Assembly: GCF_008065095.1 (NCBI RefSeq)
Contig: NZ_CP042911.1
Location: forward strand, 8,820,001-8,852,000
Source of the DNA: Gemmata obscuriglobus
GTDB lineage: Bacteria > Planctomycetota > Planctomycetia > Gemmatales > Gemmataceae
Direction of reading: 5' to 3'
DNA length: 32,000 bases
Part shown: positions 1 through 29,100 of the stretch, piece by piece
Layout: every line of letters begins with the position of its first letter
Numbering within the stretch: the stretch's first letter is position 1
The notes under the pieces: model-generated
Told to the model about the DNA's origin: nothing
Seen by the model: the letters and a program-made list of their open reading frames with translations, nothing else
Databases searched by the model: none
Translations under genes and position numbers: made by a program

Positions 1-166
1 GGCGGGTGTCGTCGAACGCGGCCACCTTCGCCGCGAGGAACGCCGAGTAATAGCGGTACGCGATGGCGAGGCAGCACAGCACGGCGATCATAACCGGCAT
101 CGCGTGCAGGATTAGCCGCTGGCTTACGGGGTCGCGCGAGTACAGCGTGAGAGCGAACAGATCCAT
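1..166 (-). CDS. cstA: Carbon starvation protein CstA, N-terminal part (gene continues off the left edge)
   Basis: The reverse complement from ATG (164-166) reads MDLFALTLYSRDPVSQRLILHAMPVMIAVLCCLAIAYRYYSAFLAAKVAAFDDTR. The hydrophobic N-terminus plus the AYRYYS..AAKV..DDTR motif matches the conserved CstA start (E. coli IAYRFYG..IAKNVLAVDPTR). It is too short to appear in the ORF track. Confidence 0.55.
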   Translation of the reverse strand, partial: MDLFALTLYSRDPVSQRLILHAMPVMIAVLCCLAIAYRYYSAFLAAKVAAFDDTR

Positions 167-297
167 GAGGCAGCGTCCGGAGGAGAGAGACGCGAACTAG
201 GTTACCAGCATGCCGCGCCGCGGGCCAACGCCGATCAGAATTACACGCGAATCGGCCCGAGTTCCGCGAAGTCGTCGGGCAGGGCTATTGAAAGTTT

Positions 298-1358
298 GGC
301 TCATGTCTTGCACGGGGTGTTGAGGTGTCGCGACGGGCGGTCCGCGATTAGGATGGGGTCATCGGGTTTTCGCGCCAGGGGCGATGCGATGGACTTCCCG
401 CTCGGCGAGTTGATGGACGAGTCGGCGTGCTACGCGAAGCCGCGGGCGCGACTGCACCCGGACGGGTTGCGGTGCCCCCAGTGCGGCGCGCGGGAGCACA
501 TCGGTGTGCACCGGTATCGGCGCCGCGAGGCGGTCCCGGATCACCGGTGCGACGAGTGCGGGCGGGTGTTCAACGCATTCACCGGGACCGAGCGGCACGG
601 CACTCGGCGCCAGTCGTCGACGGTGCTGTTGTTGCATCGTCCCGGGCACCCCGACCGCGCAACGGGCTCGGGAGCTCACGTGCCGCCGAACCTCGCTGCT
701 GGCGTGGCGCCACCCGATTCAGGCGTGGGCCGAGCACGCGTGGCCCCAACCGGCGTTGGCCGACCCCGTCACGGAGGCCGATGAGATGTTCCAGAATGCG
801 GGGGAAAAAGGGCGCCGCCACGCCGATCCGGCCGATCCGCCGCGGGCACGGGCGAATAAGAGGCGCGGGCACGGTACGTTCGACAACGATCGCCCGCCGG
901 TGGTCGGTGCGGTCGGCCGGGACTCGGGACCCGTGCGCCGGCGGGTCGTTGGGTACACGGATCGGGCGACGCTCGAAGGGTTCGTGACCGGGGCCACGGT
1001 CGCGGGCGCGACGGTGAACACGGACGAGTGGAAGGGGTACGGTGGGTTGTCAAAGGTGGGCCGAACCCACGCCACCGTTTGCCACTCGCCGGCCAACCGC
1101 GAGTGGGCCCGGGACGACGACGGGGACGGGGTTCGTGAGGTGCACACCAACACCATGGAAGGAACGTGGACCGGGCTTCGCAACTTCCTCCGCCCGTTCC
1201 GCGGCGTAAGCAAGTGGTTCTTGTCGCAATATGTCGCCATGCTCAAATAGTTACACAGACCCAATTTCGTTAACGACGACTTCCTCCGCATCCTGCTCGG
1301 CACCCACCCCACCGCTGATCGGCCCAAACCAGCCGACATCCCAAGTAAGACATGAGCC
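298..1358 (+). mobile_element. IS1595-family (ISXO2-like) insertion sequence, about 1.06 kb, bounded by 12-bp perfect terminal inverted repeats
   Basis: ggctcatgtctt at 298-309 is the exact reverse complement of aagacatgagcc at 1347-1358. These repeats enclose the transposase reading frames. No clear target-site duplication is visible. Confidence 0.55.
389..1250 (+). pseudogene. IS1595/ISXO2-like transposase, frameshifted
   Basis: The N-terminal zinc-ribbon part (MDFPLGELMDESACYAK..LRCPQCGAREHIGVHRY..HRCDECGRVFNAFTGT) is in the frame of ORF 296..784. The continuation (GTPTAQRARELTCRRTSLLAWRHPIQA...EADEMFQNAGEKG...TVNTDEWKGY...HTNTMEGTWTGLRNFLRPFRGVSKWFLSQYVAM) is in the frame of ORF 504..1250. 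The frame switch is near 620-645. Confidence 0.7.
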
Positions 1359-1363
1359 GGCAT

Positions 1364-1522
1364 GAGCTAGTTCACCACGAGGACGACGCCACGCGGGACC
1401 AGGCCCAGGCCAGCATCTTCGAGTACATCGAGGCGTTCTGCAACCGGGTCCGAAGGCGCTCGGCTCTGGGGCACGCTGCCCCAGACGAGTACGAGCGAAC
1501 GCATTATCAATCTGGCCGCTAA
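1364..1522 (+). pseudogene. IS3-family transposase (OrfB/integrase) C-terminal remnant
   Basis: Translation gives LVHHEDDATRDQAQASIFEYIEAFCNRVRRRSALGHAAPDEYERTHYQSGR then stop (taa 1520-1522). This is the typical IS3 integrase tail (IFEYIE.FYNR.R.HSALGY.SP.EYE). No upstream part is present, and it begins a few bp after the IS1595 right end. Confidence 0.6.
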
Positions 1523-1797
1523 AACCTGTCTACTTTTCGTGGGGAACTCCATCGTCGAGCGGACGCCTTTCGCGAGCGGATGTAGTACCGCACCTCATCG
1601 CTCGTCTTACCGGCGACCGTGCGACTACTGACGAGCACCACGACGGACCGCAACCGGGGGCATACATCCCAGTCCCGGATCAACTCCAGGTCGTCCATGA
1701 CGAAACAGAACCGCATCTCCGCGCGCCCGTGGCTCGTTCCTTCATTGAGGTCGGTCGAGCGGCCCGCGTAGCTCGCCTCCAGGGCCAGGCCTTTCAC
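1523..1797 (-). pseudogene. ISAs1-family transposase internal fragment
   Basis: The minus-strand ORF 1519..1797 contains HGRAEMRFCFV..LIRDWDVCPRLRSVVVLVSSRTVAGKTSDEVRYYIRS. This is the GHGR-E.R ... G..S.E.RYYISS signature of ISAs1 (DDE_Tnp_1-associated) transposases. It is cut off where the IS3 remnant abuts. Confidence 0.5.
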
Positions 1798-2055
1798 GGT
1801 GGCCGCTATTGGCTGAAGTCTTTTATCTTAAATACCTTCCGCCATTATGGCAGATGGCTGACCATTGCCAGTTGTTGCCAAATCGTGAGTGACAGTGCAT
1901 TGCCACTCACGATTCGCTTGAAAATTCTGGAGTGGCAAATTTCATAATATCCTCATCGACCGTGAATGGCCTAGCCTCCAGAGCCTACCGCTTTCACTAT
2001 TGACGGTACAGCGTTATAGTCCCGGAGTACGTTCTCCGTTCTCCGAGAGTTCCGC

Positions 2056-3246
2056 ATGGATGCGGCCACGATTTATCAGCGGTTCGTGGCGCGCGCCGGC
2101 GGCCGTTCTGATCCACGGGTTGATTCAGAGTTGTCTGTCGCCCGAGCTCCTCGACACCGTCGCCGCACCCCATTTACCCCCCTCGCCCCCCCCCGCCAGC
2201 TCGCCTTTTCGCACCTCGCCGAACTCCTACTGCCCGTCGTGTTCGAATCCAAAACGTCCGTCCGACACTCCTACCGGGATGCCACCCACCTCCACGCCAT
2301 AGCTACACTCAAGTGCATCTACGAGCGATTCGGCAGTACCCAACGACCGCCGTGGCCGCCCTCATCGAGGCCGTCGCCGGGCGGGCCGCCCCGCTGCTCG
2401 ACCCACACGCCCCCGGAACCACCCGGTTCCTGACCCTCGACGGGAACCACTTGGCCGCGACCCAGAACCGGCTCGCCGACCTGTCCGGGTTGCCCGCGGC
2501 CTTGCCCGGTCAAGCCCTGGTCCTGCGGGACCAAGCGACCGGCGTGTTCCTTCAGGTTCTGTTGCACGAGGACGGCCACGCCAACGAGCGGTCGCTGCCC
2601 CCCAGTTCCGGGGCTGGTGTGGGGCCGGTGATGTGGTCATCGCCGATAGCGGGTTTTGCACCGAGGCGTTCCTGATCGGCATGCGGCGGAGCGGGGCCGG
2701 GGTTGTGGTCCGCCACCACGGCGGGGTCGGGTTGACCCGGTTGGGGGAGCGCCAGGACTGCGGGCACACCGGGACCGGGCGCGTGTACCAGACGCGGGTG
2801 CGACACGCAGAGACCGCATGGGAGTTCCGGTTGGTGGAAGTGGAGTTGGACCGACCGACGCACGAGGGGCACGGCACCATCGGGGTCCTTACGGACGTGG
2901 CGGAGGACGCCCTGTCGGCGGTGCAAGTGGCAGCCACACCCGGCGGACCATCGAGAGCGCGTCCCAAGAGCTGGCGGAGGGCTTGCGCGGCGAGGTGGAG
3001 ACGCTGGCGTACCCGAAGACGGCGCTGTTCGGCTTAGCAGTGTCGGTCTACAACCTGTTGCAAGTGGTGCGGCACGCGGCGCAACGGGCCGGGGCCGCGC
3101 CGAACGGGGCCGAAGTGTCGCCCGTATTGCTGGCCCAAGAGGTGGGTTCGTACGGGGTTGGTCTGGGGCCGCTCGAGAGGGGAACCCGGAGGTGCCCACC
3201 GCCGCGTGGGACACGGGCCGGTTACGGGTGTGGGTGGACGGATTAG
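2056..3246 (+). pseudogene. IS4-family (DDE) transposase, at least three frameshifts
   Basis: Transposase-like sequence is spread over ORFs 2056..2433, 2313..2675, 2633..3037 and 2656..3246, in three different frames. Examples are LTLDGNHLAATQNRLADL, DVVIADSGFCTEAFLIGMRRSGAGVVVR, and RRTIESASQELAEGL.., which matches the Y..RW.IE..F.ELK motif. Confidence 0.6.
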
Positions 3247-3499
3247 CACTACTCCGTTACCTCGCCATAACTACTTATTTTACAACGATTTATGTAAAAA
3301 ATATCGCCTTAAAATCTTGTAGGATCTGGACTTGAGGCAAATGGAATGCTCACCGCCCCACCGGGATGTTTGCTGTTCTCGTGAACGGACTCGCCAGAAT
3401 CGCTGAGATTTGAGCCCATTGCGGGTGCACAAACCTGTAGGTGCAGATCACCACAAACCGCTCTACTGTAATTGGTTGTGGCGAAGTAACGGAGTAGTG
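3247..3499. repeat. AT-rich 253-bp element with terminal inverted repeats (MITE-like)
   Basis: cactactccgttac (3247-3260) is the exact reverse complement of gtaacggagtagtg (3486-3499). Pairing extends inward to about 27 bp with about 3 mismatches (3247-3273 vs 3473-3499). The interior is much more AT-rich than the flanks. Confidence 0.4.
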
Positions 3500-3551
3500 T
3501 TATACGGTCGTGGCTCGTCAACAAAAGCGACACCCATTGCGAATTCACGTA

Positions 3552-4454
3552 TCAGGCCCGCAACTCGGCTTGCGCCTTCTGAGCGGCGGCGACGATCTGC
3601 GCCTCCCAGTCGCGATCATCGGGCTGGAATGGGAACGTCACCCCGCGCGAACTGTTCACGATCGCGCCCAGCCCGTCGGGGCGGTACGCGGCCTTAACGT
3701 CCGCCGCGGTGCCGCCCTGCGCGCCATACCCCGGCACCAGTAGCCACACGTCGGGCATCGCCGCGCGCAACTCGACCAGTTCCCGTGGGTGGGTGGCGCC
3801 GACAACCGCCCCGACATCGCCCAGCCCGCTCTCACCGCGGGTGGGGGCGTTCCAGCGGGCCACTTCCTCCGCGACGTGGCGGTACACCGGCTTCCCGTTG
3901 CACACGAGGTCCTGGAACAGCCCCGCGCCCGGGTTGCTGGTGCGCACCAGCACGAACACCCCGCGGTCCCCCTTCTTCGCGGCGGTGAGGAACGGCTCCA
4001 CCGCGTCGCGACCGAGGTACGGGTTGATCGTCAGCGCGTCGGCGTCCCACACCGGCAGCGTGCTGCCGTCGATGGCGCAGCCCGTGAACGCGGCGTCCGC
4101 GTAGGCGGTCGCGGTGGAGGCGATGTCCCCGCGCTTCGCGTCGAGGATGGTCACCAGGTTCATCCGCCGCGCCCGCGCGAGCAGGGTTTGGAGAGCGACC
4201 ATACCGGGCGGCCCGAACAGCTCAAAGAACGCGGCCTGCGGCTTCACGATCCCGCAGTACGGCACGACCAGTTCGAGCACGCGCTGCCCGAACTCGGCGA
4301 ACGCCCACGCCGCGCTCTGGTAGTCCGCCCCGAGCACGACGCGGTGGCGCTCGCGGATGGCCCGCGGTAGCGCCTCCCAGCGCGGGTCGATGCCCACGCA
4401 CAGCGGCCCCTTAGCGCGAACCGCGGCGGCGAGACGGTCAGAGAACGAGGGCAT
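3552..4454 (-). CDS. pyrF: Orotidine 5'-phosphate decarboxylase, type 2
   Basis: This is a 300-aa ORF with GPLCVGIDPR, ILDAKRGDIASTATAYA and LLVPGYGAQGG motifs, and an ATG at 4452-4454. Confidence 0.9.
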   Translation of the reverse strand: MPSFSDRLAAAVRAKGPLCVGIDPRWEALPRAIRERHRVVLGADYQSAAWAFAEFGQRVLELVVPYCGIVKPQAAFFELFGPPGMVALQTLLARARRMNLVTILDAKRGDIASTATAYADAAFTGCAIDGSTLPVWDADALTINPYLGRDAVEPFLTAAKKGDRGVFVLVRTSNPGAGLFQDLVCNGKPVYRHVAEEVARWNAPTRGESGLGDVGAVVGATHPRELVELRAAMPDVWLLVPGYGAQGGTAADVKAAYRPDGLGAIVNSSRGVTFPFQPDDRDWEAQIVAAAQKAQAELRA

Positions 4455-5399: not shown

Positions 5400-7727
5400 C
5401 TACTTGCGGCGCTTCCGCGGGCGCGGGGGGCGGCCGGGAGTGGGGAGAGCGTCGCCCCCGTCATCTTCCGTTTTCGGCCGCGCGTCGGCCAGTCTCAGGT
5501 CCAGCATCCGCCGCGGCAAATCGACCCGGGCGACGACCACCCGGACGCGGTCCCCCAACCGGAACCGCCGTTGCGTCCGCCGCCCCTCTAACGAGTGCGC
5601 GCTTTCGTCGAACCAGTAGTAATCGTCCACCAGCGATGAGATGTGCACCAGCCCTTCGGCCGGGAACCGCTCCGCCTGCGCGAAGAAGCCGTAGTCCGCG
5701 ACGCCCGTGATGACCGCGTCGAGCTGCTCGCCGAGTCTGCCGCTCAGATAGCTCAGGATGCGGGTCTTCACCAGCTCGCGCTCCGCCGTCTCGGCCCGCC
5801 GCTCCATCTTCGAGCAGTGCTCGCCCAGCGCCGCCAGTTCCTCCGTGTTCGCACTGGCCGATCCGGTCCGGACCCACTTGTCGAGGAGCCGGTGGACCTG
5901 GAGGTCCGGGTAGCGGCGGATGGGCGAAGTGAAGTGGCAGTAGTGGTGGCTGGCGAGCGCGTAGTGCTCGTCCTGGACGGGCGAGTATGTGGCCTGTTTG
6001 AAGCTCCGCAGTAGCGCGAAGTGGAACGCGGCGCGCTCGGGCTTGTCGGCGGTCGCGTCCAGCACGCGCTGGAGTTCGTAGCGGTCCTGGGGGCGCTTGA
6101 TCGGGTGGCCGAGGATGGCGGCGAACTGGGCGAACGCTTCGAGCTTGTCCTCGTTGGGCGCCGGGTGGACCCGCCGCAGGAACGAGACCTCGTGCGCGGT
6201 GAAGTGTTCCGCGACGGCCTCGTTTGCCGCGAGCATGAACTCCTCAACGATCTGGTGGCTCAGGTTGTGTTCGGCGAAGTGCGCGCCGCTCACGCGCCCG
6301 TCGGCGTCGTACTCCAGCACCGCCTCGGGCATGGTGAGTTCGAGCGCGCCGCGCTTGAACCGCTTCTTGCGCAGGAGGAGCGCGAGGTCGCGCATCCGGC
6401 GGATCATGGGGAGCAGATCGGGGGCCGGACCTACCCCCCCCGGCCCCCCCTCCCTGAAGGGAAGGGGGGAGTCAGCAGGTGGCGCGCCCGGCGCATCGGT
6501 GACGTTGGCGGCGCGCGAAGGGTCTGTCTCCCCCCTTCCCTTCAGGGAGGGGGGGCCGGGGGGGGTAGGTCCGCTTGCCAGTTCGTCCAGCAGCGCCTGG
6601 ACCTCGTCGTAGGTGAACCGCTTGCGGTTCCGGATCGCGCCGTTGAAGAACTCCACGTGCCCCTTTTGAAGCCCCGGGGTGAACTCCATCCGCACGGTCT
6701 TCACGTACCGGACCTTGCCCTCCTGCAGCGACGCCAGCCCGTTGGAGATCAGCTCCGGGAACATCGGGATGACCTTCTGCGGCAGGTACACGCTGGTGGC
6801 GCGCTTCCGCGCCTCGGCGTCCAGCGCGCCGCCGGGCTTCACGAACGCCGCCACGTCCGCGATGTGGACCGTCAGCACCCAGTGCTTCGTCTTCGGGTCG
6901 ATGGTGACGCTGACCGCGTCGTCGTAGTCCTTCGCGTCGGGCGGGTCGATGGTCACGACCAGCTCGTCCGTGAAGTCCGTGCGGCCGTGCAGGTCCGCTT
7001 CCGAGAACTGGCTCGCGACCTCCCGGGCCTCGGCCAGCGCGCTTTCCGGGAACGCTTCGGGCAGCCCGAACGCGCGGATAACCGAGAGCGTATCGACGCC
7101 GGGCGCGCCGTTCGGCCCGAGCACCTCCGCGACGACGCCCTCGCCACGCGCGTCGGGCGCCGGGAACCGCAGCATCTCGATGACGACCTTGTCCTGCGGC
7201 TTCGCCCCCTTCGCCCCCGGGTCGCCGACCGCGATGCTGTGCGCGAACAGGTTGCCGTCGACGCGCACGAGGGCGGTCCGGTCGCGCTCGAAGTAGGTGC
7301 CCACGAACGTGCGGGTGGCCCGCTCCAGCACGCGCACGACCTCGCCGGCGGCGTCCTTGAGCCGGGTCGCCGTGCGGGTGACCCGGGCCATCACCTCGTC
7401 GCCCGTGGCGGCGTCGAGGGCCTTGTCCTCGCGGATGTAGATCTCGGGCTGCGGCGCCCCGTCGACGGCGTGCGGCCGGACGAACCCGTGCCCCGCCGCG
7501 GAGCGGCGGTACACGCCGGCGACGGTGCCGTGAACGTCCGCGACGCGCAGCGTGTTGTTCTTGGCGAGCGCGAGCCGCCCGGTGCGGACCAGCTCGCGCA
7601 CCGTCTTGCGGAACTCGGGGTAGTCACTCTCGGGCAGGTTGAGCCGCTTGAACAGCGGCTTCGCCTTGAGCGGGACGTAGCTCTTCGCGGTCACCGCGTG
7701 GAGCACTTTCGCGAGAATTTCAGCCAT
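5400..7727 (-). CDS. rnr: Ribonuclease R (3'-5' exoribonuclease: cold-shock/OB, RNB and S1 domains)
   Basis: RNB motifs are present (TIDPPDAKDYDDAVSV, SVYLPQKVIPMFPE, HYALASHHYCHFTSPIRRYPDLQVHR). There is a C-terminal S1 domain and a basic tail. The start was chosen at MAEILAKV (ATG 7725-7727) rather than the upstream ORF-track start at 7868. Confidence 0.9.
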   Translation of the reverse strand: MAEILAKVLHAVTAKSYVPLKAKPLFKRLNLPESDYPEFRKTVRELVRTGRLALAKNNTLRVADVHGTVAGVYRRSAAGHGFVRPHAVDGAPQPEIYIREDKALDAATGDEVMARVTRTATRLKDAAGEVVRVLERATRTFVGTYFERDRTALVRVDGNLFAHSIAVGDPGAKGAKPQDKVVIEMLRFPAPDARGEGVVAEVLGPNGAPGVDTLSVIRAFGLPEAFPESALAEAREVASQFSEADLHGRTDFTDELVVTIDPPDAKDYDDAVSVTIDPKTKHWVLTVHIADVAAFVKPGGALDAEARKRATSVYLPQKVIPMFPELISNGLASLQEGKVRYVKTVRMEFTPGLQKGHVEFFNGAIRNRKRFTYDEVQALLDELASGPTPPGPPSLKGRGETDPSRAANVTDAPGAPPADSPLPFREGGPGGVGPAPDLLPMIRRMRDLALLLRKKRFKRGALELTMPEAVLEYDADGRVSGAHFAEHNLSHQIVEEFMLAANEAVAEHFTAHEVSFLRRVHPAPNEDKLEAFAQFAAILGHPIKRPQDRYELQRVLDATADKPERAAFHFALLRSFKQATYSPVQDEHYALASHHYCHFTSPIRRYPDLQVHRLLDKWVRTGSASANTEELAALGEHCSKMERRAETAERELVKTRILSYLSGRLGEQLDAVITGVADYGFFAQAERFPAEGLVHISSLVDDYYWFDESAHSLEGRRTQRRFRLGDRVRVVVARVDLPRRMLDLRLADARPKTEDDGGDALPTPGRPPRPRKRRK
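6426..6573. repeat. Perfect 46-bp inverted repeat pair with a 56-bp spacer, lying in frame inside rnr
   Basis: 6426-6471 (cggacctaccccccccggccccccctccctgaagggaaggggggag) is the exact reverse complement of 6528-6573. It encodes PTPPGPPSLKGRGE...SPLPFREGGPGGVGP between the OB region and the RNB domain. Confidence 0.85.
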
Positions 7728-7806
7728 AGATTTTTGGCGCCCCTGCCCTCGCGGGCGGGGCGTCAGAGCGGCAACGAGCCCGGCCCGCGGGGCCGGCTCG
7801 CCGGGG

Positions 7807-8811
7807 TCAGTCGTACCCGCCGCCGGACTCGCCGAACAGGTCGCCGAAGGCCCCGCCCTTGTAAACACGGCGGCCCAGGTTGTGGTTGTACGGCGTCCAC
7901 GCGGTCGGGTTGTTGCGGTCGTCCTTCAGCTCGCGCAGCACCATGTGCATGCGCGTGTCCATCGCGTCGATCAGGTGCAGCAGCATCGCCTCGGGGGTCA
8001 TCGGCACCTTCGGGCTGCCGTAGCTCAGCTCCCCGTGGTGGCTCAGGATCATGTGCTGGAGCCGGAGCATCAGCTCCCGCGGGAACGGCTCCCCGGTCAG
8101 GTCCGGCACCTTGGCCGCGGTCTCGGCGAGCATCGCCACGGCGATCGGGATGTGCCCGACCAGTTGCCCCTCGTCGGAGTACCCGAAGGCGCGCGAGAAG
8201 GTCAGCTCCCGGGTCTTGCCCGCGTCGTGCAGCAGCACGCCCATCAGCACGAGGTCGCGGTCCGTGCCGGGGTACAGCGCGAGCACCTTGTCCGCGATGT
8301 CCATCATCGAGACCGTGTGCTCCAGCAGCCCCCCCACGTAGGCGTGGTGCAGCTTCACCCCGGCCGGGCACGTCGCGAACGCCCGCATGAACTCGTCGTC
8401 CATGAGGAAGCACTCGGCGAGCGCCCGCAGGTGCGGGTTGCCGAGCCGGAGCAGGTAGCCCTTCAAGCGCTCCGTGAGCTTCGGGATGCTGTGCTCGGTC
8501 TGCGGCAGGAAGTCGGCGAACTCGACCTTCTGCGGCTCCACCCGCTCGACTGCCGTCAGGATGGCCTGCAGCGCGCCCTGGAACAGTTGCACCTTGCCGG
8601 TGGCGAACAGGAAGTCGCCGGGGTCGAACCCGCGCGCGATGCTGTCGCCGGCGTTCCACATGCGGCCCTGGATGCCGCCGGTGCGGTCCCGCAGTTCTAC
8701 AAGGAGGTACGGGTTCCCGTTCCGGTTCGCGCGGAGCTGCTTGTCCGTCACGAGGTACACGTCTTCGAGGTTGTCCCCGTCGCGGAGCTGTTCGACGAAA
8801 CGGCGGGCCAT
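7807..8811 (-). CDS. YhaM-like 3'-5' exoribonuclease (N-terminal OB fold plus HD domain)
   Basis: The start is MARRFVEQL (ATG 8809-8811). OB-like [25 protein letters not shown] is present, with HD-domain motifs [12 protein letters not shown] and VLLHDAGK, and LSHHG. Confidence 0.7.
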
Positions 8812-9068
8812 GCGGGTGCGTACTTTCTTGCATGAAACGTGAGAACGGTCGGCGCGGTCGCAACGCCCGCGGCGCGCGCCTACGGGCAATTGTACCGGCG
8901 ATCGCACCGGGGCGCAGGAAATCCAGCCGCGTACAATGGGGGCAAGAAGACGAAGAACCTCATCCCCCGCTCCCGGCCCCTTCCCGTCCCGCCGGCCCGG
9001 TCAGCGGAGCTTCCGCGGGCCGGCGGAACGAGAGGGTGCCGGGGGAGAGGCTCTTCAGGAGACCGTTT

Positions 9069-10826: not shown

Positions 10827-10910
10827 CCTGGTGCGCGTTCGAGAACGATGTTTACACGCACAGCCGTCGGAACTGAGCTTTGTCCGCAATAACGCGGCGT
10901 TTCGGCCCGC

Positions 10911-11486
10911 TCACTTCACCGGTCGCGATCCCGCGATGAGGATGTCCACGAGCCGCCGCGCACATTGCTGCCAGTCCGGGATGGCCGGCACGTGGGCCAC
11001 CCCCACGATCGCACTCAGCAGGTCGATCGGGTCCAGGTCCGTTCGAATGTCCCCGCTCTCCACCGCGCGCCGGACCAGGGACTGTATCGCGTCGTGGATC
11101 TGGGTGCGGGACGCCTCGACCACCTTGGGGTGGCACTGGACCAGCGTCGAGAGGGCCGGGGCGATGATCTTTTTGGCCGCGATGTAGTCCACGAACAGGA
11201 GCAGCCAGGATCGCAGCGCTTCGGGCGGTGAGAGCCTGAGAGCCAGTTCCTGCCCGGCCGAGGCGAGCTTCTCCACCTCCGTGCGGTACACGGCTTCGAG
11301 GAGCGCGTCCCGCGTCGGGAAGTGGCGGTACAGCGTTCCCGGGCCGACCCCCGCTTCCCGCGCGATCTCGTCCAGACTCGCCTCGGCCCCCGATTTGGTG
11401 AACGCCCCTTTCGCCACCTCAAGGATGCGCGCCCGGTTCCGCTCGGCGTCGGCCCGCGGTTTTCGCTTGGCCGGTGTCTTTGCCAT
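10911..11486 (-). CDS. TetR/AcrR-family transcriptional regulator
   Basis: The N-terminal HTH reads RARILEVAKGAFTKSGAEASLDEIAREAGVGPGTLYRHFPTRDALLEAV. Length is 191 aa. Confidence 0.9.
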   Translation of the reverse strand: MAKTPAKRKPRADAERNRARILEVAKGAFTKSGAEASLDEIAREAGVGPGTLYRHFPTRDALLEAVYRTEVEKLASAGQELALRLSPPEALRSWLLLFVDYIAAKKIIAPALSTLVQCHPKVVEASRTQIHDAIQSLVRRAVESGDIRTDLDPIDLLSAIVGVAHVPAIPDWQQCARRLVDILIAGSRPVK

Positions 11487-11499
11487 CGAACGCCCCTTG

Positions 11500-11551
11500 A
11501 AAACGGAGAACGCCTCCGGTACTGTTGTGATACGGAGCCAGTCTCCGTTTT
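11500..11551. promoter_or_regulatory. Candidate operator: 10-bp inverted repeat just upstream of the TetR gene start
   Basis: aaaacggaga (11500-11509) and tctccgtttt (11542-11551) are exact reverse complements. The left half lies 14 bp from the TetR ATG, in the divergent region toward the sigma-factor gene. Confidence 0.3.
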
Positions 11552-11748
11552 AGCAAGCGGAACAGGTCGGTACAACCGCGGTCGCCGAAACTCGGTGCCG
11601 TCCCGCTGGAAAAGAACACCCAGCGGCCGTAACCGTTCGAGCCGCTTGCCATGTCCGCGTCGCGGGAACGGATTGGGTGCCACCCGACCGGACGGAATTT
11701 TAGAGCCGGCCTGGGAGCAACACGATTCGAACTCCGAGTAGGGTCTAC

Positions 11749-12540
11749 GTGGTAGAGGGGACAATGATGAACAGCTTTGGACCTCGCGGTACACGCAAGC
11801 CTCTCACTCAAAACGAAACGGCTCGGGACACGGGGCGGGAGTTCGCACAACTCTTCGGCCCTGTTATCTACACACTGGCTCGCAAGCAGGGGTTCGGGGA
11901 CGCGGTGGCCGCCGACCTCGTGCGCGAAGTTCTGATGCGCGCCGCCCGGGACGATGGACGAATAGAGGACCACTCGGCCCCCGACACGATTCACGCCCGA
12001 CTCATCACCACCACCCGGAGCGCGATGGCCGATGTTGGCTCGGTCAAAGACGATCGGCCACGCCGGGGCGGCGCTGCCGGGGCGACCGCCCCGTTCGGAC
12101 GCGACCTCACACCGGACCTCAATGCGGACTGGGAGCGTGAGTTCCAGCGCCAGCTTGCGATGCGGGCAATGGGCCGCGTGAAACGCGAACTCTCGCCGCT
12201 CGACTGGCAGGCGTTTTGGCGAACCGAAGTGGACGGCCGGGCCGGAGCGGCGGTCGGGCGGGAACTCGGGATGACACCCGGGGCCGTCTACGTCACGAAG
12301 TGCCGGGTGCAGATGCGGCTTCGCGAAGAGATGCGCCGCCTCCGACTCGAAGCCGAATCGTGGGGCAGCACTACGGCCCGAGCCGACGGGGGCCAAGATC
12401 TCGACCGAACCCGTCCGCCCAACCGGCCACCTGAGACATCGCTCGCCCCGTCCGCGATCGACTCCGAGGACATCGACCGCACCCCCCTTCACGTCCCGTC
12501 CTTCTCAACGCTGGGGTGCAACTGTTCCGGGTTCGATTGA
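11749..12540 (+). CDS. ECF-type RNA polymerase sigma-70 family factor
   Basis: A region-2-like segment (FAQLFGPVIYTLARKQGFGDAVAADLVREVLMR) is present. A region-4 HTH is also present (WQAFWRTEVDGRAGAAVGRELGMTPGAVYVTKCRVQMRLREEM). The exact start is uncertain. Confidence 0.65.
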   Translation: MVEGTMMNSFGPRGTRKPLTQNETARDTGREFAQLFGPVIYTLARKQGFGDAVAADLVREVLMRAARDDGRIEDHSAPDTIHARLITTTRSAMADVGSVKDDRPRRGGAAGATAPFGRDLTPDLNADWEREFQRQLAMRAMGRVKRELSPLDWQAFWRTEVDGRAGAAVGRELGMTPGAVYVTKCRVQMRLREEMRRLRLEAESWGSTTARADGGQDLDRTRPPNRPPETSLAPSAIDSEDIDRTPLHVPSFSTLGCNCSGFD

Positions 12541-12591
12541 AATGAGTGCGTGACGTGTAAGGGCACGCTTCGAGGCGGGTATAACTGAACG

Positions 12592-12652
12592 GATCGGCCG
12601 CAGAAGTTGAGGTGAATGGGCGACACCTCAGCGACCTGCGGCCGATCTTTTT
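12592..12652 (+). terminator. Rho-independent terminator downstream of the sigma-factor gene
   Basis: The 12-bp stem gatcggccgcag (12592-12603) / ctgcggccgatc (12636-12647) has an inner tgaggtg/cacctca helix. It is followed directly by ttttt (12648-12652). Confidence 0.65.
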
Positions 12653-12941
12653 GCGCAACTGATAGTCAAGATCCAAGGTTCAGTGGCAGCCCGGGTCGGG
12701 GCTCTTCTCCTGTGGGCACGGCGTGGCCATTCCCGGGCGCAAAGTAGCCAGCATATCGCGGTGCGGAAGCCCCAGACCTGCACCGCTTACCCGTTTCGAT
12801 GCTCGGCGCGCCGCATGCCCTCCATTCCGCTCCTGAATTCTCTTTTACGCGCGTCAGAGGCGTCCCAGTCATTCGTCTCTCCCGTGTCCGGAGCGCTCAC
12901 GGGACCGAACCGTCCGGATTTGCCGATCGCGGAGAGTTGTT

Positions 12942-18796: not shown

Positions 18797-18870
18797 AACG
18801 GTTCCGGGGCGGCGCCCCCTGGAACGCACCATTGGCGGTGCGTTCCAGGGGGCGCCGCCCCGGAACCGTT
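18797..18870. repeat. Perfect 34-bp-stem hairpin (REP-like palindromic element)
   Basis: aacggttccggggcggcgccccctggaacgcacc (18797-18830) is the exact reverse complement of 18837-18870, with the loop attggc. It lies between the trxA stop and the coiled-coil gene start, and no U-tract follows on either strand. Confidence 0.85.
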
Positions 18871-21884: not shown

Positions 21885-23659
21885 GCTTGTTCCCCGGGAC
21901 TCCAGTTCGGACCAAATAACTTATCGGCCTGCACCGCGAGCTTCTCGCGAAAGATCTTGGAGTTGTGCCGCACGTCCATCGGGAACTCCGGGTGCAGCAG
22001 GTACGTGACCACGCGGCGTGCTGCCGCAGAGCGCTGTCCAATACTAGACATGAGCCCGTCCAGCGCCGGACCGGACGGTCCCCCGACCGCGTCAAAGAGG
22101 GTGCTCCCCGGCTCGCTGCTACGGTCCAGTTCGACCCAGAGCACGGGGTACGTAATTCCGCGGCGAGTCACCCCCACCAGAGCCGTCCGGCGCACCCCCG
22201 GGACGGTATTAAAGATCGGCTCAACCATGTCGGTAAACAGTGTGCCGTGGGGCGTCACGACCCGGTGCGATTTGCGCCCACAGAACCAGAGCCGCCCTTG
22301 CGCGTCAAAATACCCGACGTCACCCATGCGGTGCAGAACTTCGCCGGTTTTCGGGTCGCGAATCTTCGCCAACTTGGTCGCGTCGGGGCGGTTGTAGTAC
22401 AGTTGCGTCACCACCGGCCCGCGGACCACGAACTCGCCCACCTCCCCCTGCGGCACGAGGAGCGAATCGTCCCACTCGGCGACCGGCTGGTCGCTGATGC
22501 GGATCACCCGCACCTCCACCCCCGGCACGGGCCGCCCGACGCACACGCCCTTACCTTGGTCGGTCAGGTGCCGCGTTTCGCCCAGGATCTCACGGCTACC
22601 GATGTTCGCAACCGGCAGCGCTTCGGTTGCCCCGTAAGGGGTGAACACCTCGACGCCGTCGGGAAGAAGGCGAACGAACCGCTCGAGTGACGCTGCTGAC
22701 GCCGGAGCCCCAGCGGAGATAACCCTTTTGAGCGTCTCAAGTCGGCGGGTCTCCGGTCCCGAGTCGGGGGCCGCACTGTTTTCTGACTTGGGACCGGAGA
22801 CCCGCCGACTTGGGACCGTTAATTCCCCCAACCGGCGGATCACGGCCGGCGAGCCGAACAGGCTCGTGACGCCGAACTGCTTGATTTGCGCCGCGGCCTT
22901 ATGAGGGTCGAGGCGGGCCGGGCGGCTCGCGTCCATGTCCGGGATCACGCACGTCATCCCGAGCGCCGGGCCGAACAACGCGAACAGCGGGAACGTACAG
23001 AGGTCGATCTCGCCCGGCGCGATGCCGTAGGTGGCCTTCAGCAGTTTCACTTGCGCGTCGAAGATGCCGTGGACGTACACCACCCCCTTCGCCACACCGG
23101 TGCTGCCGCTGGTGAACAGGACCGCCGCCGGCTCCGTCGCCTGCGAATCCGGCACCGGGTACGGCCCGCTCCCGCGCCCGGCCTTGCGCACCCGCGCGAG
23201 CGAGGTGTCGCAGAAGAACCGCCACCGGGACACGTTCACGGTGGCGCGAACGGTGCCCTTCGCCCACCCCAGCACGCGCCGCGCCGCGTGCGCCTTCGCG
23301 ACCCCGATGAACGCTTCCGGCCCGGCCTCCGCAAGGCACTTGCCGAGGTTCCTGACGCCCATTCCGGGGTCGATCAGCACCGGGACGGCGCCGACCTTGA
23401 AAAGAGCAAAGGTTAGGGCGAAGAAGTCCGGCGACGGCGGCACCATCAGGGCCGTGCGCGTGCCCCGGGCGACGCCCGCCGACGCGAGCCCGTGGGCGAT
23501 CGCGTCGGAGTCGGCGTTCAGCTCGCGGAAGGTGATCGCCCGGTGTTCGGTCGGGCCGTCGCGGCGCACCCGGCCGCGGGGCGCGTAAACCGCCACCTGC
23601 GTTGGGTGCTCCGCGGCCATCCGGACCAAATGCGAGGCGACGTTGAGGGAGGTGTTCAT
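21881..23659 (-). CDS. oleC: OleC: AMP-dependent synthetase family, beta-lactone synthetase
   Basis: This is a 592-aa ANL-superfamily protein (LFTSGSTGVAKGVVY, ISAGAPAS, FTPYGATEALP, HRMGDVGYFDAQGRLWFCGRK). It sits between oleB and oleD. Confidence 0.85.
   Translation of the reverse strand: MNTSLNVASHLVRMAAEHPTQVAVYAPRGRVRRDGPTEHRAITFRELNADSDAIAHGLASAGVARGTRTALMVPPSPDFFALTFALFKVGAVPVLIDPGMGVRNLGKCLAEAGPEAFIGVAKAHAARRVLGWAKGTVRATVNVSRWRFFCDTSLARVRKAGRGSGPYPVPDSQATEPAAVLFTSGSTGVAKGVVYVHGIFDAQVKLLKATYGIAPGEIDLCTFPLFALFGPALGMTCVIPDMDASRPARLDPHKAAAQIKQFGVTSLFGSPAVIRRLGELTVPSRRVSGPKSENSAAPDSGPETRRLETLKRVISAGAPASAASLERFVRLLPDGVEVFTPYGATEALPVANIGSREILGETRHLTDQGKGVCVGRPVPGVEVRVIRISDQPVAEWDDSLLVPQGEVGEFVVRGPVVTQLYYNRPDATKLAKIRDPKTGEVLHRMGDVGYFDAQGRLWFCGRKSHRVVTPHGTLFTDMVEPIFNTVPGVRRTALVGVTRRGITYPVLWVELDRSSEPGSTLFDAVGGPSGPALDGLMSSIGQRSAAARRVVTYLLHPEFPMDVRHNSKIFREKLAVQADKLFGPNWSPGEQA
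22738..22812. repeat. 75-bp palindromic element in frame inside oleC
   Basis: caagtcggcgggtctccggtccc (22738-22760) is the exact reverse complement of gggaccggagacccgccgacttg (22790-22812). Pairing extends inward 4-5 bp and outward 3 bp after a mismatch. The 75 bp equal 25 codons. Confidence 0.85.
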
Positions 23660-26128: not shown

Positions 26129-29100
26129 CTATTCTAGGGTGAAATCGGTCATCTGGTAGATAACCCGCCCGTCCACGGTCAGGAACCCGTTGGCGGTGAG
26201 CCGGTGATTATCGTCGTCCGCGGCGACGATTTCTAGCACAACCGTGACCTCGTGGTCCTTCGGCAGCACCTGCCCGCGGTACACCCACGTGTGCGGCACG
26301 TTTCGGGCCACCGTGTGCCACGGCTTCGCCGGCGCCCCCCACCGCTTCCACGCCGCGTACTTCAGCAACTGGAGGAACGACTCCAGCCCCAGCGACCCGG
26401 GCCACACCGGGTCCTGGTAGAAGTGCGCCTTGAAGAACCAGAACTCCGGATCGACCTTGATGGTCCCCACCAGGAGCCCGAGCCCCTTCGCGCCGCCGTC
26501 CGGGACGTACGCGGTGACCCGGTCCACCATGCGCAGCATCGCCCCGGGGAACGGCGGCTCGTGCGGGAGCGCGTCGCTCCTGGCTCGCACCAGCTCCTGC
26601 TCGTTGGGCCACGGCACCCGGGCTTCGCGGATGCCGACCTGGTTCGCCAGTGCCCCCTTCGTGAAGAACCCGAAGTAGGTGGTGCCCTTGTACATCGGCC
26701 CCTGAGCGTCCTCGACGAGCATGTCGTAGTGCTGAATGATCATGCCCGCAGAGTTCGACACGCCCGTCATCTTCACGGTGGTCGCGAGCGTCCCGGTGGC
26801 CGGCGTCACCGCGCGGAACTGGGTGCCCTTCCCGCCGAGGTTGCGGAAGCTCAGGTCGTCCTTGCTGGTGAGCGCCGACCCGCAGTACGCGGCGAGCCAC
26901 CCGCACGGCTGGAGGGCGATCTCCAACAGGACGCTGAACGGCATGTTCTCGCAGCGGTTCTCGCCGAAGTACCACTCGTCCGGCGGCACGGCGTAGAGGG
27001 CGGTGCAGCTCGCGCCGGCCTTCAGCACGAACGGCTCGCCGGACACGGCGGTCACGCAGTCGAGGAACTGGTACGGCGGCCCCGGCAGGCGAGCGAGCAC
27101 CCGCTCGGAGTCGAACACCTTGTAGGGCTCGCCGAACGCTTCGGACGGGTTGCCGTTCGAGTACGCCATGATTTTGGCGGAATCGTACAGCGGAGCGGCA
27201 GACAACCCACCCCCCGGCCCCCTCCCTGCAGGGAGGGGGAGAGAAGACACTTCCGAACCGGTTCGTGGACCGGATGGGGTTCGCACCGCGTCGGAACGCC
27301 CCGCTCCCTTCAAGGGAGTAGGTTCTGCCATCCCGGCCCAGATCACATTCAGCTTCTCGCGCGAGAGCCCCGACATGCGCAGCGTCATGTTGGTGATCTC
27401 GACGATCGGCTTGCCGTCCGCGTACATCAGCGCGTCGGCGACGCAGAACGGCTCCGGCCGGTAGCCCAGTTCCTTCACCGTCACCTCGTAGGTGACGGTC
27501 TTGGTCGTCGCGAGCACCTGCCCGCGGCACTTCAGCCGGCTGTTGACGCCCGGCAGCGGCTCGCACACCACGTCGTCGGCCTCGCCCACCCAGCCGAGGC
27601 GCATCAGCAGCACGCGGAGCGTGTGCAGGCAGCACTCGTACATGAGCGTCCCCGGCATCACTTGATCGTCCACGAAGTGACACGTCAGGAACCAGTCGTC
27701 CGGGTGAATGTCGAACTCGGCGCGCACGAAGCCGGTGCCGAACCGCCCGCCCGCGGGTTCGATCAGGGGCACACGGTCCACGAGCCGGAGCATCCCGCCG
27801 GGGATGGTGGCCGGTCGCGTCAGCCGCGCCCGGGCGAACGCCGGCCCGAACGCCCCCACGAGGTCGCCCCCGCGCAGGGCGTCCACCTGTTGCGCGGTCA
27901 GCGCGCACACCGTTTGGGGCACGAGGTCCGCCCAGTCGTCGGGCCTCTTGCCCGGGAACCGCTTCTTGTCGAGCGCGGTCTGAACGATCCCCTTACCGGC
28001 CGCGAGCGCATCCGCGGTGAAGAACCCGGCTACGCCGTTGCGCATCGTGATGAGGGGCTCGCCGTTGACCGTTCCGTCGAACCAGAAGTGGAACAGCCAG
28101 GAATCGCCCTGCTTCACGAACTTGTCGATGTGGATGTCGTAGGTCACCGTTTCGCCGACCTGCGGCAGCCCGCGGTGGAACGACACGACCGCGTCGAGCA
28201 GCCGGTACACGGCCAGCCCGCGGGTCTCGAAGTCGATGCCGAGGTACCCCGAGAGGAACAGGTCGGCCTGCCCCGCCTCGACGCAGATCGCGGTCGGGAT
28301 GCGGCCCGATTGCAGGTACCAGCGGTCCGCGCGGACGGTGTGGTGCGTCACCACGCGCCCGCTCGTCATCGACTTCGGCTCGCCCTCAATGAGGCTGATG
28401 CTGTCGACGAGTTGGAGCGGGCCGTCCGGCAACCGGACGCGGGTCGGGAAGGAATCGACCTCGGCGAACAGCGGCCCGAGCGCGTCGGCGATCTTGCCGG
28501 CCGCGTAGGTGCAGCACTGCTCGAAGGTCAGCGCGCGGGGCGGCTCCAGCGGGGACGCCGGAGGGGTCAGCCACACGAGCGACGAGACCGGTTCGCTCGC
28601 GCCCGCGCCTCCGCGCGTCCACGCATCGAGCAGCGAGGTTTGGAACCTCAGCACCCCGGCGGCAGACTCCATCAACTTGCCGCTGACACGCAGGAACGCC
28701 TCTTGCGCCTGCATGTTGAGCACCTGCACGTTTGCGACCGACTCAATGACCGGGGCAAGAGACGGCACCAGTTCCGGAGCGAGCACCGGAACGATGTGTG
28801 GGCTCGCCACCTCTTCGGGCTGAGCCGCCGGAGCGAGAGGTTGGCTCCGCAAGCGAACGTGAGGCTCGGGGGATGAACGAAGCGCCTCGGTGGGAGGAAC
28901 GTGTGGAGTCGGCTCCGGTGTGCCAGCGGCCACGACCGGCGCGACGCGCTCCTCCCCGTCCGTCTCGATCGGCACCGCGCTCGGCGCGGCTTCCCGCTTC
29001 GTGAGAGGTGTCAATACCACGGCCGGGGGCACCGGGCGCAACCCCACCGGCACCACAACCACGTTGCGCCGCGCCGGTTCGGGCTCCCGGTGCGCAACGC

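Follow-up and report, generated by a model that had tools for sequence, protein, structure and literature searches.

A probable mobile palindromic repeat translated in frame within RNase R of Gemmata obscuriglobus, and a DUF559 endonuclease as its candidate partner

The gene encoding RNase R (rnr) in the planctomycete Gemmata obscuriglobus contains a long, nearly perfect inverted repeat that is translated as part of the protein. The gene lies in a 32,000-nt stretch of the genome (contig NZ_CP042911.1, positions 8,820,001 to 8,852,000), which is termed the window here, with coordinates counted from its first base. The palindrome is very probably a mobile, non-autonomous repeat that is tolerated in frame. 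The explanation favored as a whole, to which a probability of about three in four is assigned, is that a non-autonomous miniature doublet occupies a permissive loop of RNase R, with an endonuclease of the DUF559 family as the candidate enzyme. The proposal that this endonuclease drives the repeat family comes from gene neighborhoods and is put forward tentatively, as one that could well be wrong.

A repeat search returned two arms of 50 nt each (6426–6475 and 6524–6573) that are complementary at 49 of 50 positions (98%) and are separated by 48 nt. They enclose a perfect core of 46 nt (6426–6471 versus 6528–6573) with 56 nt between its halves and a total span of 148 bases, exactly as described in the original prediction, which had not extended the arms to their 50 nt. 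With up to three mismatches, a 23-mer taken from the arm has three matches in the window where 0.00 are expected (100 shuffles), and as RNA the region is predicted to fold at −147 kcal/mol (z = −13.3). An Rfam scan of the region gave only sub-threshold matches to microRNA precursors, a generic hairpin likeness, and no known RNA family. Each arm is itself a structured unit. The left arm, in ‘+’ orientation, consists of an outer end, CGGACCTACCCCCCCCGG, followed by a C/G hairpin, and is matched by a hidden Markov model (HMM) of the unit at 6427–6471 (E = 1.7e-10) and by a regular expression at 6429–6469, while the right arm is the same unit in ‘−’ orientation, with the outer end CCGGGGGGGGTAGGTCCG (HMM match 6575–6528, E = 1.1e-10). 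The local hairpin of the left arm (6444–6469; CCCCCCCTCCCT-GA-AGGGAAGGGGGG, with one bulged base) has a core that is kept across the repeat family described below, and its mirror image can be read in the right arm at 6530–6555. The spacer (6476–6523) is specific to this copy, and both its length and its sequence vary among members of the family.

The host gene is encoded on the minus strand (5400–7868), where the probable start, an ATG at 7727, gives a protein of 775 residues. Its Pfam domains are OB_RNB (residues 74–133), CSD2 (154–227), a full-length RNB domain (249–619, profile positions 1–324 of 326) and S1 (666–744), which is the OB/CSD, RNB, S1 order of RNase R, and it matches the enzyme of B. 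subtilis (PDB 8cdu) at 2e-125. This open reading frame (ORF) and its domains bear out the claim that the element is translated in frame as part of RNase R, and the peptide first quoted for it is correct, but its location was not: the insert had been placed between the OB region and the RNB domain, whereas the residues it encodes, 387–434, fall within the RNB domain. Approximately 48 residues are added as a Pro/Gly-rich loop, such that the loop at this position measures 56 residues in the window protein versus 12 in the B. subtilis enzyme. The structure prediction that had been called for was run with AlphaFold, which gives residues 386–434 a pLDDT of 27–30 and no secondary structure, between confident helices at 373–384 and 438–458, and the loop inserted into the RNB domain is predicted from this model to be disordered. 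The closest protein, that of Gemmata sp. JC717, is 98% identical, and the two rnr genes differ by 50 synonymous versus 11 non-synonymous codons, which shows that rnr is functional with its insert and under purifying selection.

Among 120 aligned RNase R orthologues, the segment between RFTYDEVQ and (M/I)(L/I)RRMRDL is hypervariable, with a length of 22 residues in many relatives within the Gemmataceae and in distant orthologues, and of 45–80 in the Gemmata clade. Empty sites therefore do exist, the distant orthologues having only a short linker, and those orthologues whose peptide here is related have the nucleotide palindrome as well. JC717 (∼96% DNA identity) has the same element, one arm of which is shorter by an in-frame deletion of 15 bp. 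In the rnr of the Gemmata metagenome-assembled genome (MAG) Bin_69, the same type of unit surrounds a different spacer of 69 nt with a shifted boundary, and the two arms co-vary, having loops of TAAA/TTTA in place of TGAA/TTCA. Two further genomes have an ACCCACC...CTGCAGGG variant of the unit in this loop, SH-PL17 has a heterodimer of two unit types, Gemmata MAG U3706 retains only a decayed remnant and in one Gemmataceae MAG the site is empty, while another RNase R orthologue with the element was picked up by means of the unit alone. In G. palustris G18 the loop is occupied by an unrelated palindrome (locus L214, 1648–1744) with 29-nt arms that are 100% complementary and a 39-nt spacer (TGGTGAACCCCGACCGCAAGGTCGGGGGT). 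Because different unit variants and an unrelated palindrome are found in the same loop in the Gemmataceae, this loop must have been colonized repeatedly, and either it is merely permissive or existing palindromes draw in new ones. At the protein level, palindrome-type peptide pairs were also seen at the loop of other RNase R orthologues (SGGREP../..ADAGRSP and MKDEGGRMK../..SSFILHPS). Between the window and JC717 there are no substitutions in the arms and three in the 56-nt spacer, the sole part of the element that has any, while the flanks differ by ∼4%. About 3.7 substitutions would be expected in the 92 nt of the arms (P ∼0.025 by a Poisson estimate), which hints weakly at homogenization or constraint.

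The arms belong to a family of dispersed repeats whose unit of ∼40 nt has the form ACCTAaCCCCCCgGCCCCCtTCCC-TGAA-GGGAAGGGGG (consensus ..agaACCTA(a/c)CCCCCCggCCCCCtTCCC-TGAA-GGGAAGGGGG). A conserved C-rich outer end, ACCTA[A/C]CCCC.., is followed by the unit’s own G/C hairpin, for a whole unit of ∼45–50 nt. At the outer end ACCTAAC...GTTAGGT is the commonest sequence and ACCCACC and AGAGGT variants also occur, with the window copy having ACCTACC/GGTAGGT. The unit was found in Planctomycetota, Chloroflexota, a deltaproteobacterial MAG, Gemmatimonas and Bacteroidales. A 17-mer of the arm has exact matches in at least 120 stretches of a 596-Gb collection of public genomes, for which simple arithmetic with uniform base composition predicts ∼69 matches by chance, and the matches cannot be attributed to chance because they cluster in particular assemblies and the similarity reaches far past the 17-mer. 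Among the matches listed, the deltaproteobacterial MAG has 14 such loci, two Planctomycetota MAGs have 8 and 7, a Frigoriglobus MAG has 7, Singulisphaera and a Gemmatimonas MAG have 5 each, a Chloroflexota MAG and a Gemmata MAG have 4 each and G. algarum JC673 has 3. Hence the arm does have relatives elsewhere: there is one in the window itself, Gemmata, Frigoriglobus and Singulisphaera have several per assembly, and other phyla have more. A scan of viral contigs for the 17-mer found only four, which does not point to phages as the main carriers; on a viral contig from IMG/VR, three ‘+’ units lie ∼1 kb apart (L128, 6035–8065).

Most of the copies are dispersed beside unrelated genes, and the doublet of the window is a typical arrangement. 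When neighboring units were paired using the unit profile, 53 of 60 pairs were of the ‘+−’ type with the ACCTA ends outermost, as in rnr. These doublets measure 100–180 bp and occur in several copies per assembly in many genomes, with spacers that range from none (the units overlap to form one continuous hairpin) through 4–19 and 43–56 nt up to 97 nt, and that differ in sequence between copies. Single units are also present. The G-rich halves of the unit, GGGAGGGGGGGCCGGGGGGGGTAGG and GGGGAGGGGTTGGGGAGGGG (for example window 6546–6570; locus L123, 2260–2285), contain at least four G-runs with short loops, and from this composition they could form G-quadruplexes that compete with the hairpin. 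No description of this family, and no paper that contains the unit strings, was found in the openly searchable literature.

Insertion into coding sequence is not peculiar to rnr. Across the RNase R element, frames +0, +2 and −1 (the rnr frame) have no stops, in agreement with the earlier count of at least three open frames; frame −0 has one stop, located in the spacer, and frames +1 and −2 are closed by the TGA of the loop and a terminal TAG. The family units are likewise stop-free in two of three frames per strand, or four of six, and it is because of this, together with a net length that keeps the frame, that in-frame insertions can survive. In a penicillin amidase a single Pfam domain match (residues 72–863) spans an element at 536–581. 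Units or doublets lie within Pfam domains or the linkers between them in the leucyl-tRNA synthetase (LeuRS) of a Bacteroidaceae MAG, in a FeoAB fusion and in an FAD-oxidase/Fer4/CCG protein, and units are in frame inside DegT-type aminotransferases. A phmmer search with the insert peptide gave seven matches, one of them spurious (a repeat protein) and six with the doublet, mostly at the ends of predicted proteins. The second family copy of the window is also in frame. This decayed doublet (27205–27330) comprises a ‘+’ unit of the ACCCACC variant at 27205–27243 and a degenerate ‘−’ unit at ∼27295–27330, is translated as EPTPLKGAG...SLPLPAGRGPGGGLS, and lies at residues ∼1537–1579, just past the FabA-like domain, of a 1937-residue KS/FabA protein, similar to polyunsaturated fatty acid and polyketide synthases, that is encoded on the minus strand at 26129–31942. 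The idea of an element that preserves the reading frame in genes is therefore substantiated by copies in other conserved genes.

Evidence that the doublet moves comes from two metagenome contigs, L132 and L133, that are 99.8–100% identical over 3.8 kb save for one doublet of 175 bp. It is present in L133 (2820–2995) directly upstream of a gene encoding a DUF559 protein, where it is flanked by a direct repeat, GCGCGCC, and it is missing from L132 at ∼2995. Since these near-identical contigs differ by a single doublet, it must have been gained or lost recently and as one piece. The original prediction of a recently inserted selfish element holds insofar as copies elsewhere and this polymorphism reveal a mobile palindrome; ‘recently’ needs qualifying for the copy in rnr, which is already present in JC717 and is therefore older than the split of the two sequenced strains.

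The DUF559 gene at this polymorphic site is one of many that are found beside the units. The phmmer search with the insert peptide led to a 204-residue protein (P0122) in which a doublet is followed by a DUF559 domain. In a Prevotella MAG (L016, 813–1285) a complete DUF559 domain flanked by a unit on each side is in frame within a DegT/WecE-type aminotransferase gene, and at the same site in DegT orthologues of the Prevotellaceae there is a unit-DUF559-unit arrangement in one case (L110, ∼970–1400) versus a single small unit (PSPEGKGG) in another (L035, ∼3866–3899). To look at this from the other direction, 80 DUF559 loci were taken from metagenomes by protein homology alone, these being the 80 that best matched a profile whose source genes had initially turned up beside units. 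There was room on both sides of the gene at 67 loci, and at 49 of the 67 a unit detected by regular expression lies no more than 300 nt from it. Unit density is 3.1 per kb near DUF559 versus 0.088 per kb at distances above 500 nt, a difference of ∼35-fold. Most often the order is A(+)-DUF559-A(+)-B(−). The upstream A unit ends 9–19 nt ahead of the DUF559 start codon, and its GGGAAGGGGAG half reads like a ribosome-binding site, while the second A unit begins 7–16 nt past the end of the DUF559 match. The two A units have a similarity of 0.86–1.0 to each other and of 0.65–0.94 to B.

Close homologues of this DUF559 protein are encoded by the Gemmataceae, and the Pfam family (PF04480) was assigned to the Prevotella locus and to all 120 listed homologues. 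The gene of Gemmata sp. JC673 and that of F. tundricola have units on either side and lie upstream of an ABC transporter, a conserved place that the gene also occupies in loci L064 and L132–L135. Against the PDB, the DUF559 profile matches a solved DUF559 protein (3hrl) at 2e-30 and, weakly (6e-4), the catalytic domain of the homing endonuclease I-Bth0305I (3r3p). A link between DUF559 and repeats was not found in the literature searched as above. Small genes that start just after a unit did not reveal any general cassette pattern.

These observations are best explained as follows. A doublet of two inverted units of ∼45–50 nt around a copy-specific spacer landed in a permissive loop of the RNB domain that is predicted to be disordered, and it is simply translated as a Pro/Gly-rich loop, its net length keeping the rnr frame. 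The family is an old one, distributed in several phyla, that moves as whole doublets, as the one polymorphism shows, and repeatedly settles in the same permissive loops, as RNase R shows. We infer that the DUF559 endonuclease, a PD-(D/E)XK enzyme that is Vsr-like and related to I-Bth0305I, maintains or moves the units, its own gene being flanked by them in the order A-DUF559-A-B. DNA cut in or close to a hairpin unit would be repaired or recombined with the dispersed units as homologous partners. In this way doublets, and sometimes the DUF559 gene, would be copied to new sites, and such repair could also keep the two arms identical. It is possible, though this is more tentative still than the role of the nuclease itself, that units and DUF559 belong together in a repeat-enzyme system that spans phyla and has not been described before, analogous in function to REPIN-RAYT but with a Vsr/I-Bth0305I-like PD-(D/E)XK nuclease in place of the tyrosine transposase. 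In such a system the nuclease would recognize the units as hairpin or cruciform DNA, and doublets without the gene, and now and then the gene as well, would spread to new sites, among them in-frame sites in essential genes such as those for RNase R, LeuRS and DegT.

The alternative that fares best, although it is unlikely, is that the element is a classical doublet of repetitive extragenic palindromic (REP) sequences, or REPIN, moved by a REP-associated tyrosine transposase (RAYT) of the Y1/HUH, IS200/IS605 superfamily, with DUF559 only incidentally nearby. There is much in common with these systems, termed REPtrons (PMC3733652): hairpin units, inverted doublets with a variable spacer, singlets and clusters, dispersal beside unrelated genes, copies that are mostly intergenic and sometimes in frame within genes, and a small enzyme gene that keeps its place in the chromosome and has its cognate repeats on either side. 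There are published cases of REPs within ORFs, as well as of REPs in Planctomycetes and Chloroflexi (Di Nocera et al. 2013, PMC3733652), and the window copy has GTAG near its outer end. However, REPs are defined by a GTAG or CGTC tag 5′ of the hairpin, whereas the tetranucleotide here is 3′ of the hairpin and ∼10 nt away from it, and most members of the family have TTAG, GTGG or AGAG in place of GTAG. Neither the 28 GTAG/CGTC families nor their lists of intragenic copies contain the unit strings or the peptides they encode (PMC3733652). The units here are longer (∼40–50 nt) with a conserved C-run in the outer segment, and near-identical units are found across phyla, which is unusual for REPINs. 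Moreover, the gene that is flanked in REPtron fashion is the PD-(D/E)XK, Vsr-like DUF559 and not a Y1/HUH transposase. No Y1 transposase is among the recurrent neighbors of the ∼124 unit loci, a comparison of neighborhoods as distinct from whole genomes, and all-against-all clustering of the ORFs around 124 of these loci recovered ABC ATPases, histidine kinases, Ser/Thr kinases and DUF1501 proteins only, with no transposase.

Two other kinds of element share some of these properties. Bacterial miniature inverted-repeat transposable elements (Correia/NEMIS, Nezha, RUP) are similar in their size of ∼100–180 bp, terminal inverted repeats and lack of coding capacity, as well as in presence/absence polymorphism and a possible 7-bp flanking direct repeat of the kind seen in L132/L133. 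They differ in that here the copies do not share their internal sequence and each terminal repeat is itself a hairpin, and at the unit loci examined there was no parent insertion sequence with a DDE transposase and matching ends, since unit pairs more than 160 nt apart bracket no transposase but only DUF559. Vsr-like homing endonucleases (I-Bth0305I, ‘EDxHD’), including free-standing ones, resemble this system in the relationship of the DUF559 profile to the 3r3p domain and in the DUF559-plus-units insertions in frame in the conserved DegT gene, at a site where one orthologue has the DUF559 gene and another lacks it. In contrast to these enzymes, neither an intron nor an intein is involved here, and spread has been to many unrelated sites as gene-less doublets.

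It is less probable again that the hairpin is kept for a function in the host, for example by tuning the expression of RNase R through an extremely stable structure in the mRNA or DNA, or through a G-quadruplex on the G-rich halves. RNase R itself degrades structured and REP-containing RNA. The recurrence of palindromes, including unrelated families, at the same rnr loop in many Gemmataceae, the arms that have no substitutions relative to JC717, unlike the spacer and flanks, and the very stable RNA hairpin (−147 kcal/mol) would all be in keeping with such a role. Yet 15 nt are missing from one arm in JC717, a decayed remnant is all that is left in MAG U3706 and many orthologues have an empty linker, and the same units are found in unrelated genes and intergenic DNA across phyla. 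The recurrence at the rnr loop is equally explained by a permissive loop together with a preference for existing palindromes.

It is highly improbable that the unit is an integron-type attC site, or a relative of one handled by a tyrosine recombinase. attC sites are imperfect palindromes with a variable center and an R″/R′ consensus of RYYYAAC...GTTRRRY, to which the commonest variant of the family, ACCTAAC...GTTAGGT, conforms. The ACCTACC/GGTAGGT of the window and the ACCCACC and AGAGGT variants fall outside this consensus, the pairing of the arms is perfect and lacks the extrahelical bases that are usual in attC, and the copies are solitary, dispersed and often intragenic, with no cassette arrays and no integrase among their neighbors. 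Finally, it is scarcely credible that the palindrome reflects selection for a Pro/Gly-rich linker at the protein level, or an error of assembly: the peptide is of low complexity and lies in a variable linker, but protein selection does not yield a perfect 46-nt nucleotide palindrome, just as the original prediction had reasoned in discounting linker selection, the same nucleotide units are present in non-coding DNA and in other frames, and the element recurs in the independent assembly of a sister strain, with the ORF intact.

Several observations weigh against a mobile doublet with DUF559 as its enzyme. The 32-kb window holds only two copies of the family, no target-site duplication is clearly definable at the RNase R copy, and the 7-bp direct repeat at the polymorphic metagenome site lies in a GC-repeat context. 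The AlphaFold model of RNase R is of modest quality, with a mean pLDDT of 59.9. The association between DUF559 and the units is a correlation, and its enrichment holds for one subfamily only because the profile was constructed from unit-adjacent genes. The gene is found at only 3 of the ∼124 loci that were ascertained through the units, which fits a non-autonomous majority, and a chance preference for neighbors could give the same result. Nor is it needed in cis, since the doublet of L132/L133 varies while the gene stays.

The mobile doublet was originally likened to Rickettsia palindromic elements (RPEs). The analogy is apt for behavior: RPEs are short dispersed palindromes, in frame in functional genes, that are translated as extra surface loops and encode no transposase. 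The architecture is nearer to REPIN-type doublets, and no sequence relation to RPEs was seen or tested for. RPEs are confined to Rickettsia, whereas the Gemmata repeat family spans several phyla, consists of doublets in which two G/C hairpin units, each folding on itself, enclose a free spacer, and has a candidate partner gene. The RNase R element resembles RPEs in behavior only and is not classed as one. With its cross-phylum spread, self-folding doublets, repeated colonization of the same protein loops and DUF559 neighborhood, the family as a whole seems to be a novel version of the pairing of a repeat with an enzyme.

Other inverted repeats and boundaries were noted in the window. A perfect inverted repeat of 34 nt with a 6-nt loop (AACGGTTCCGGGGCGGCGCCCCCTGGAACGCACC) at 18797–18870 does not resemble the RNase R element in sequence, and a 32-nt inverted repeat at 22734–22816 (94% complementary, 19-nt spacer; GTCTCAAGTCGGCGGGTCTCCGGTCCCGAGTC) may be a member of another palindromic family. 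Between panB and an HD-domain gene there is a C/G-rich imperfect inverted repeat (8965–9050; 35 nt, 80%), where JC717 has a 17-bp indel and the counterpart in Bin_69 (L122, 1026–1159) is an intact family doublet. A segment of ∼2 kb (10845–12832) is absent from the otherwise collinear contig of JC717 (L121), which has ∼90 bp there; it contains an ORF for a TetR-family regulator (10911–11486, minus strand) and ORFs without Pfam matches. Collinearity with JC717 stops at 3549, GC content is lower (0.60) at 1001–2000 and an AT-richer inverted repeat of 58 nt (74%) is located at 3237–3294/3452–3509, and the region 1–3549 may be another mobile element or the boundary of an island.

If the palindrome in rnr is what it appears to be, the Pro/Gly-rich ‘PTPPGPPSLKGRGE...SPLPFREGGPGGVG’ segments that occur in proteins of Planctomycetota, Chloroflexota, Bacteroidales and other groups are the footprints of a DNA repeat and not protein features, and they flag loops that tolerate ∼50 extra residues, in this case inside the catalytic RNB domain. 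The in-frame colonization of genes known from RPEs would then be widespread and not a curiosity of Rickettsia. DUF559, a large and uncharacterized family, would gain a concrete and testable role as the partner of a palindromic repeat, with candidate DNA substrates. In addition, the occupation of one loop by unrelated palindromes, and the perfect arms around a diverging spacer, raise the questions of how targets are chosen and how arms are homogenized.

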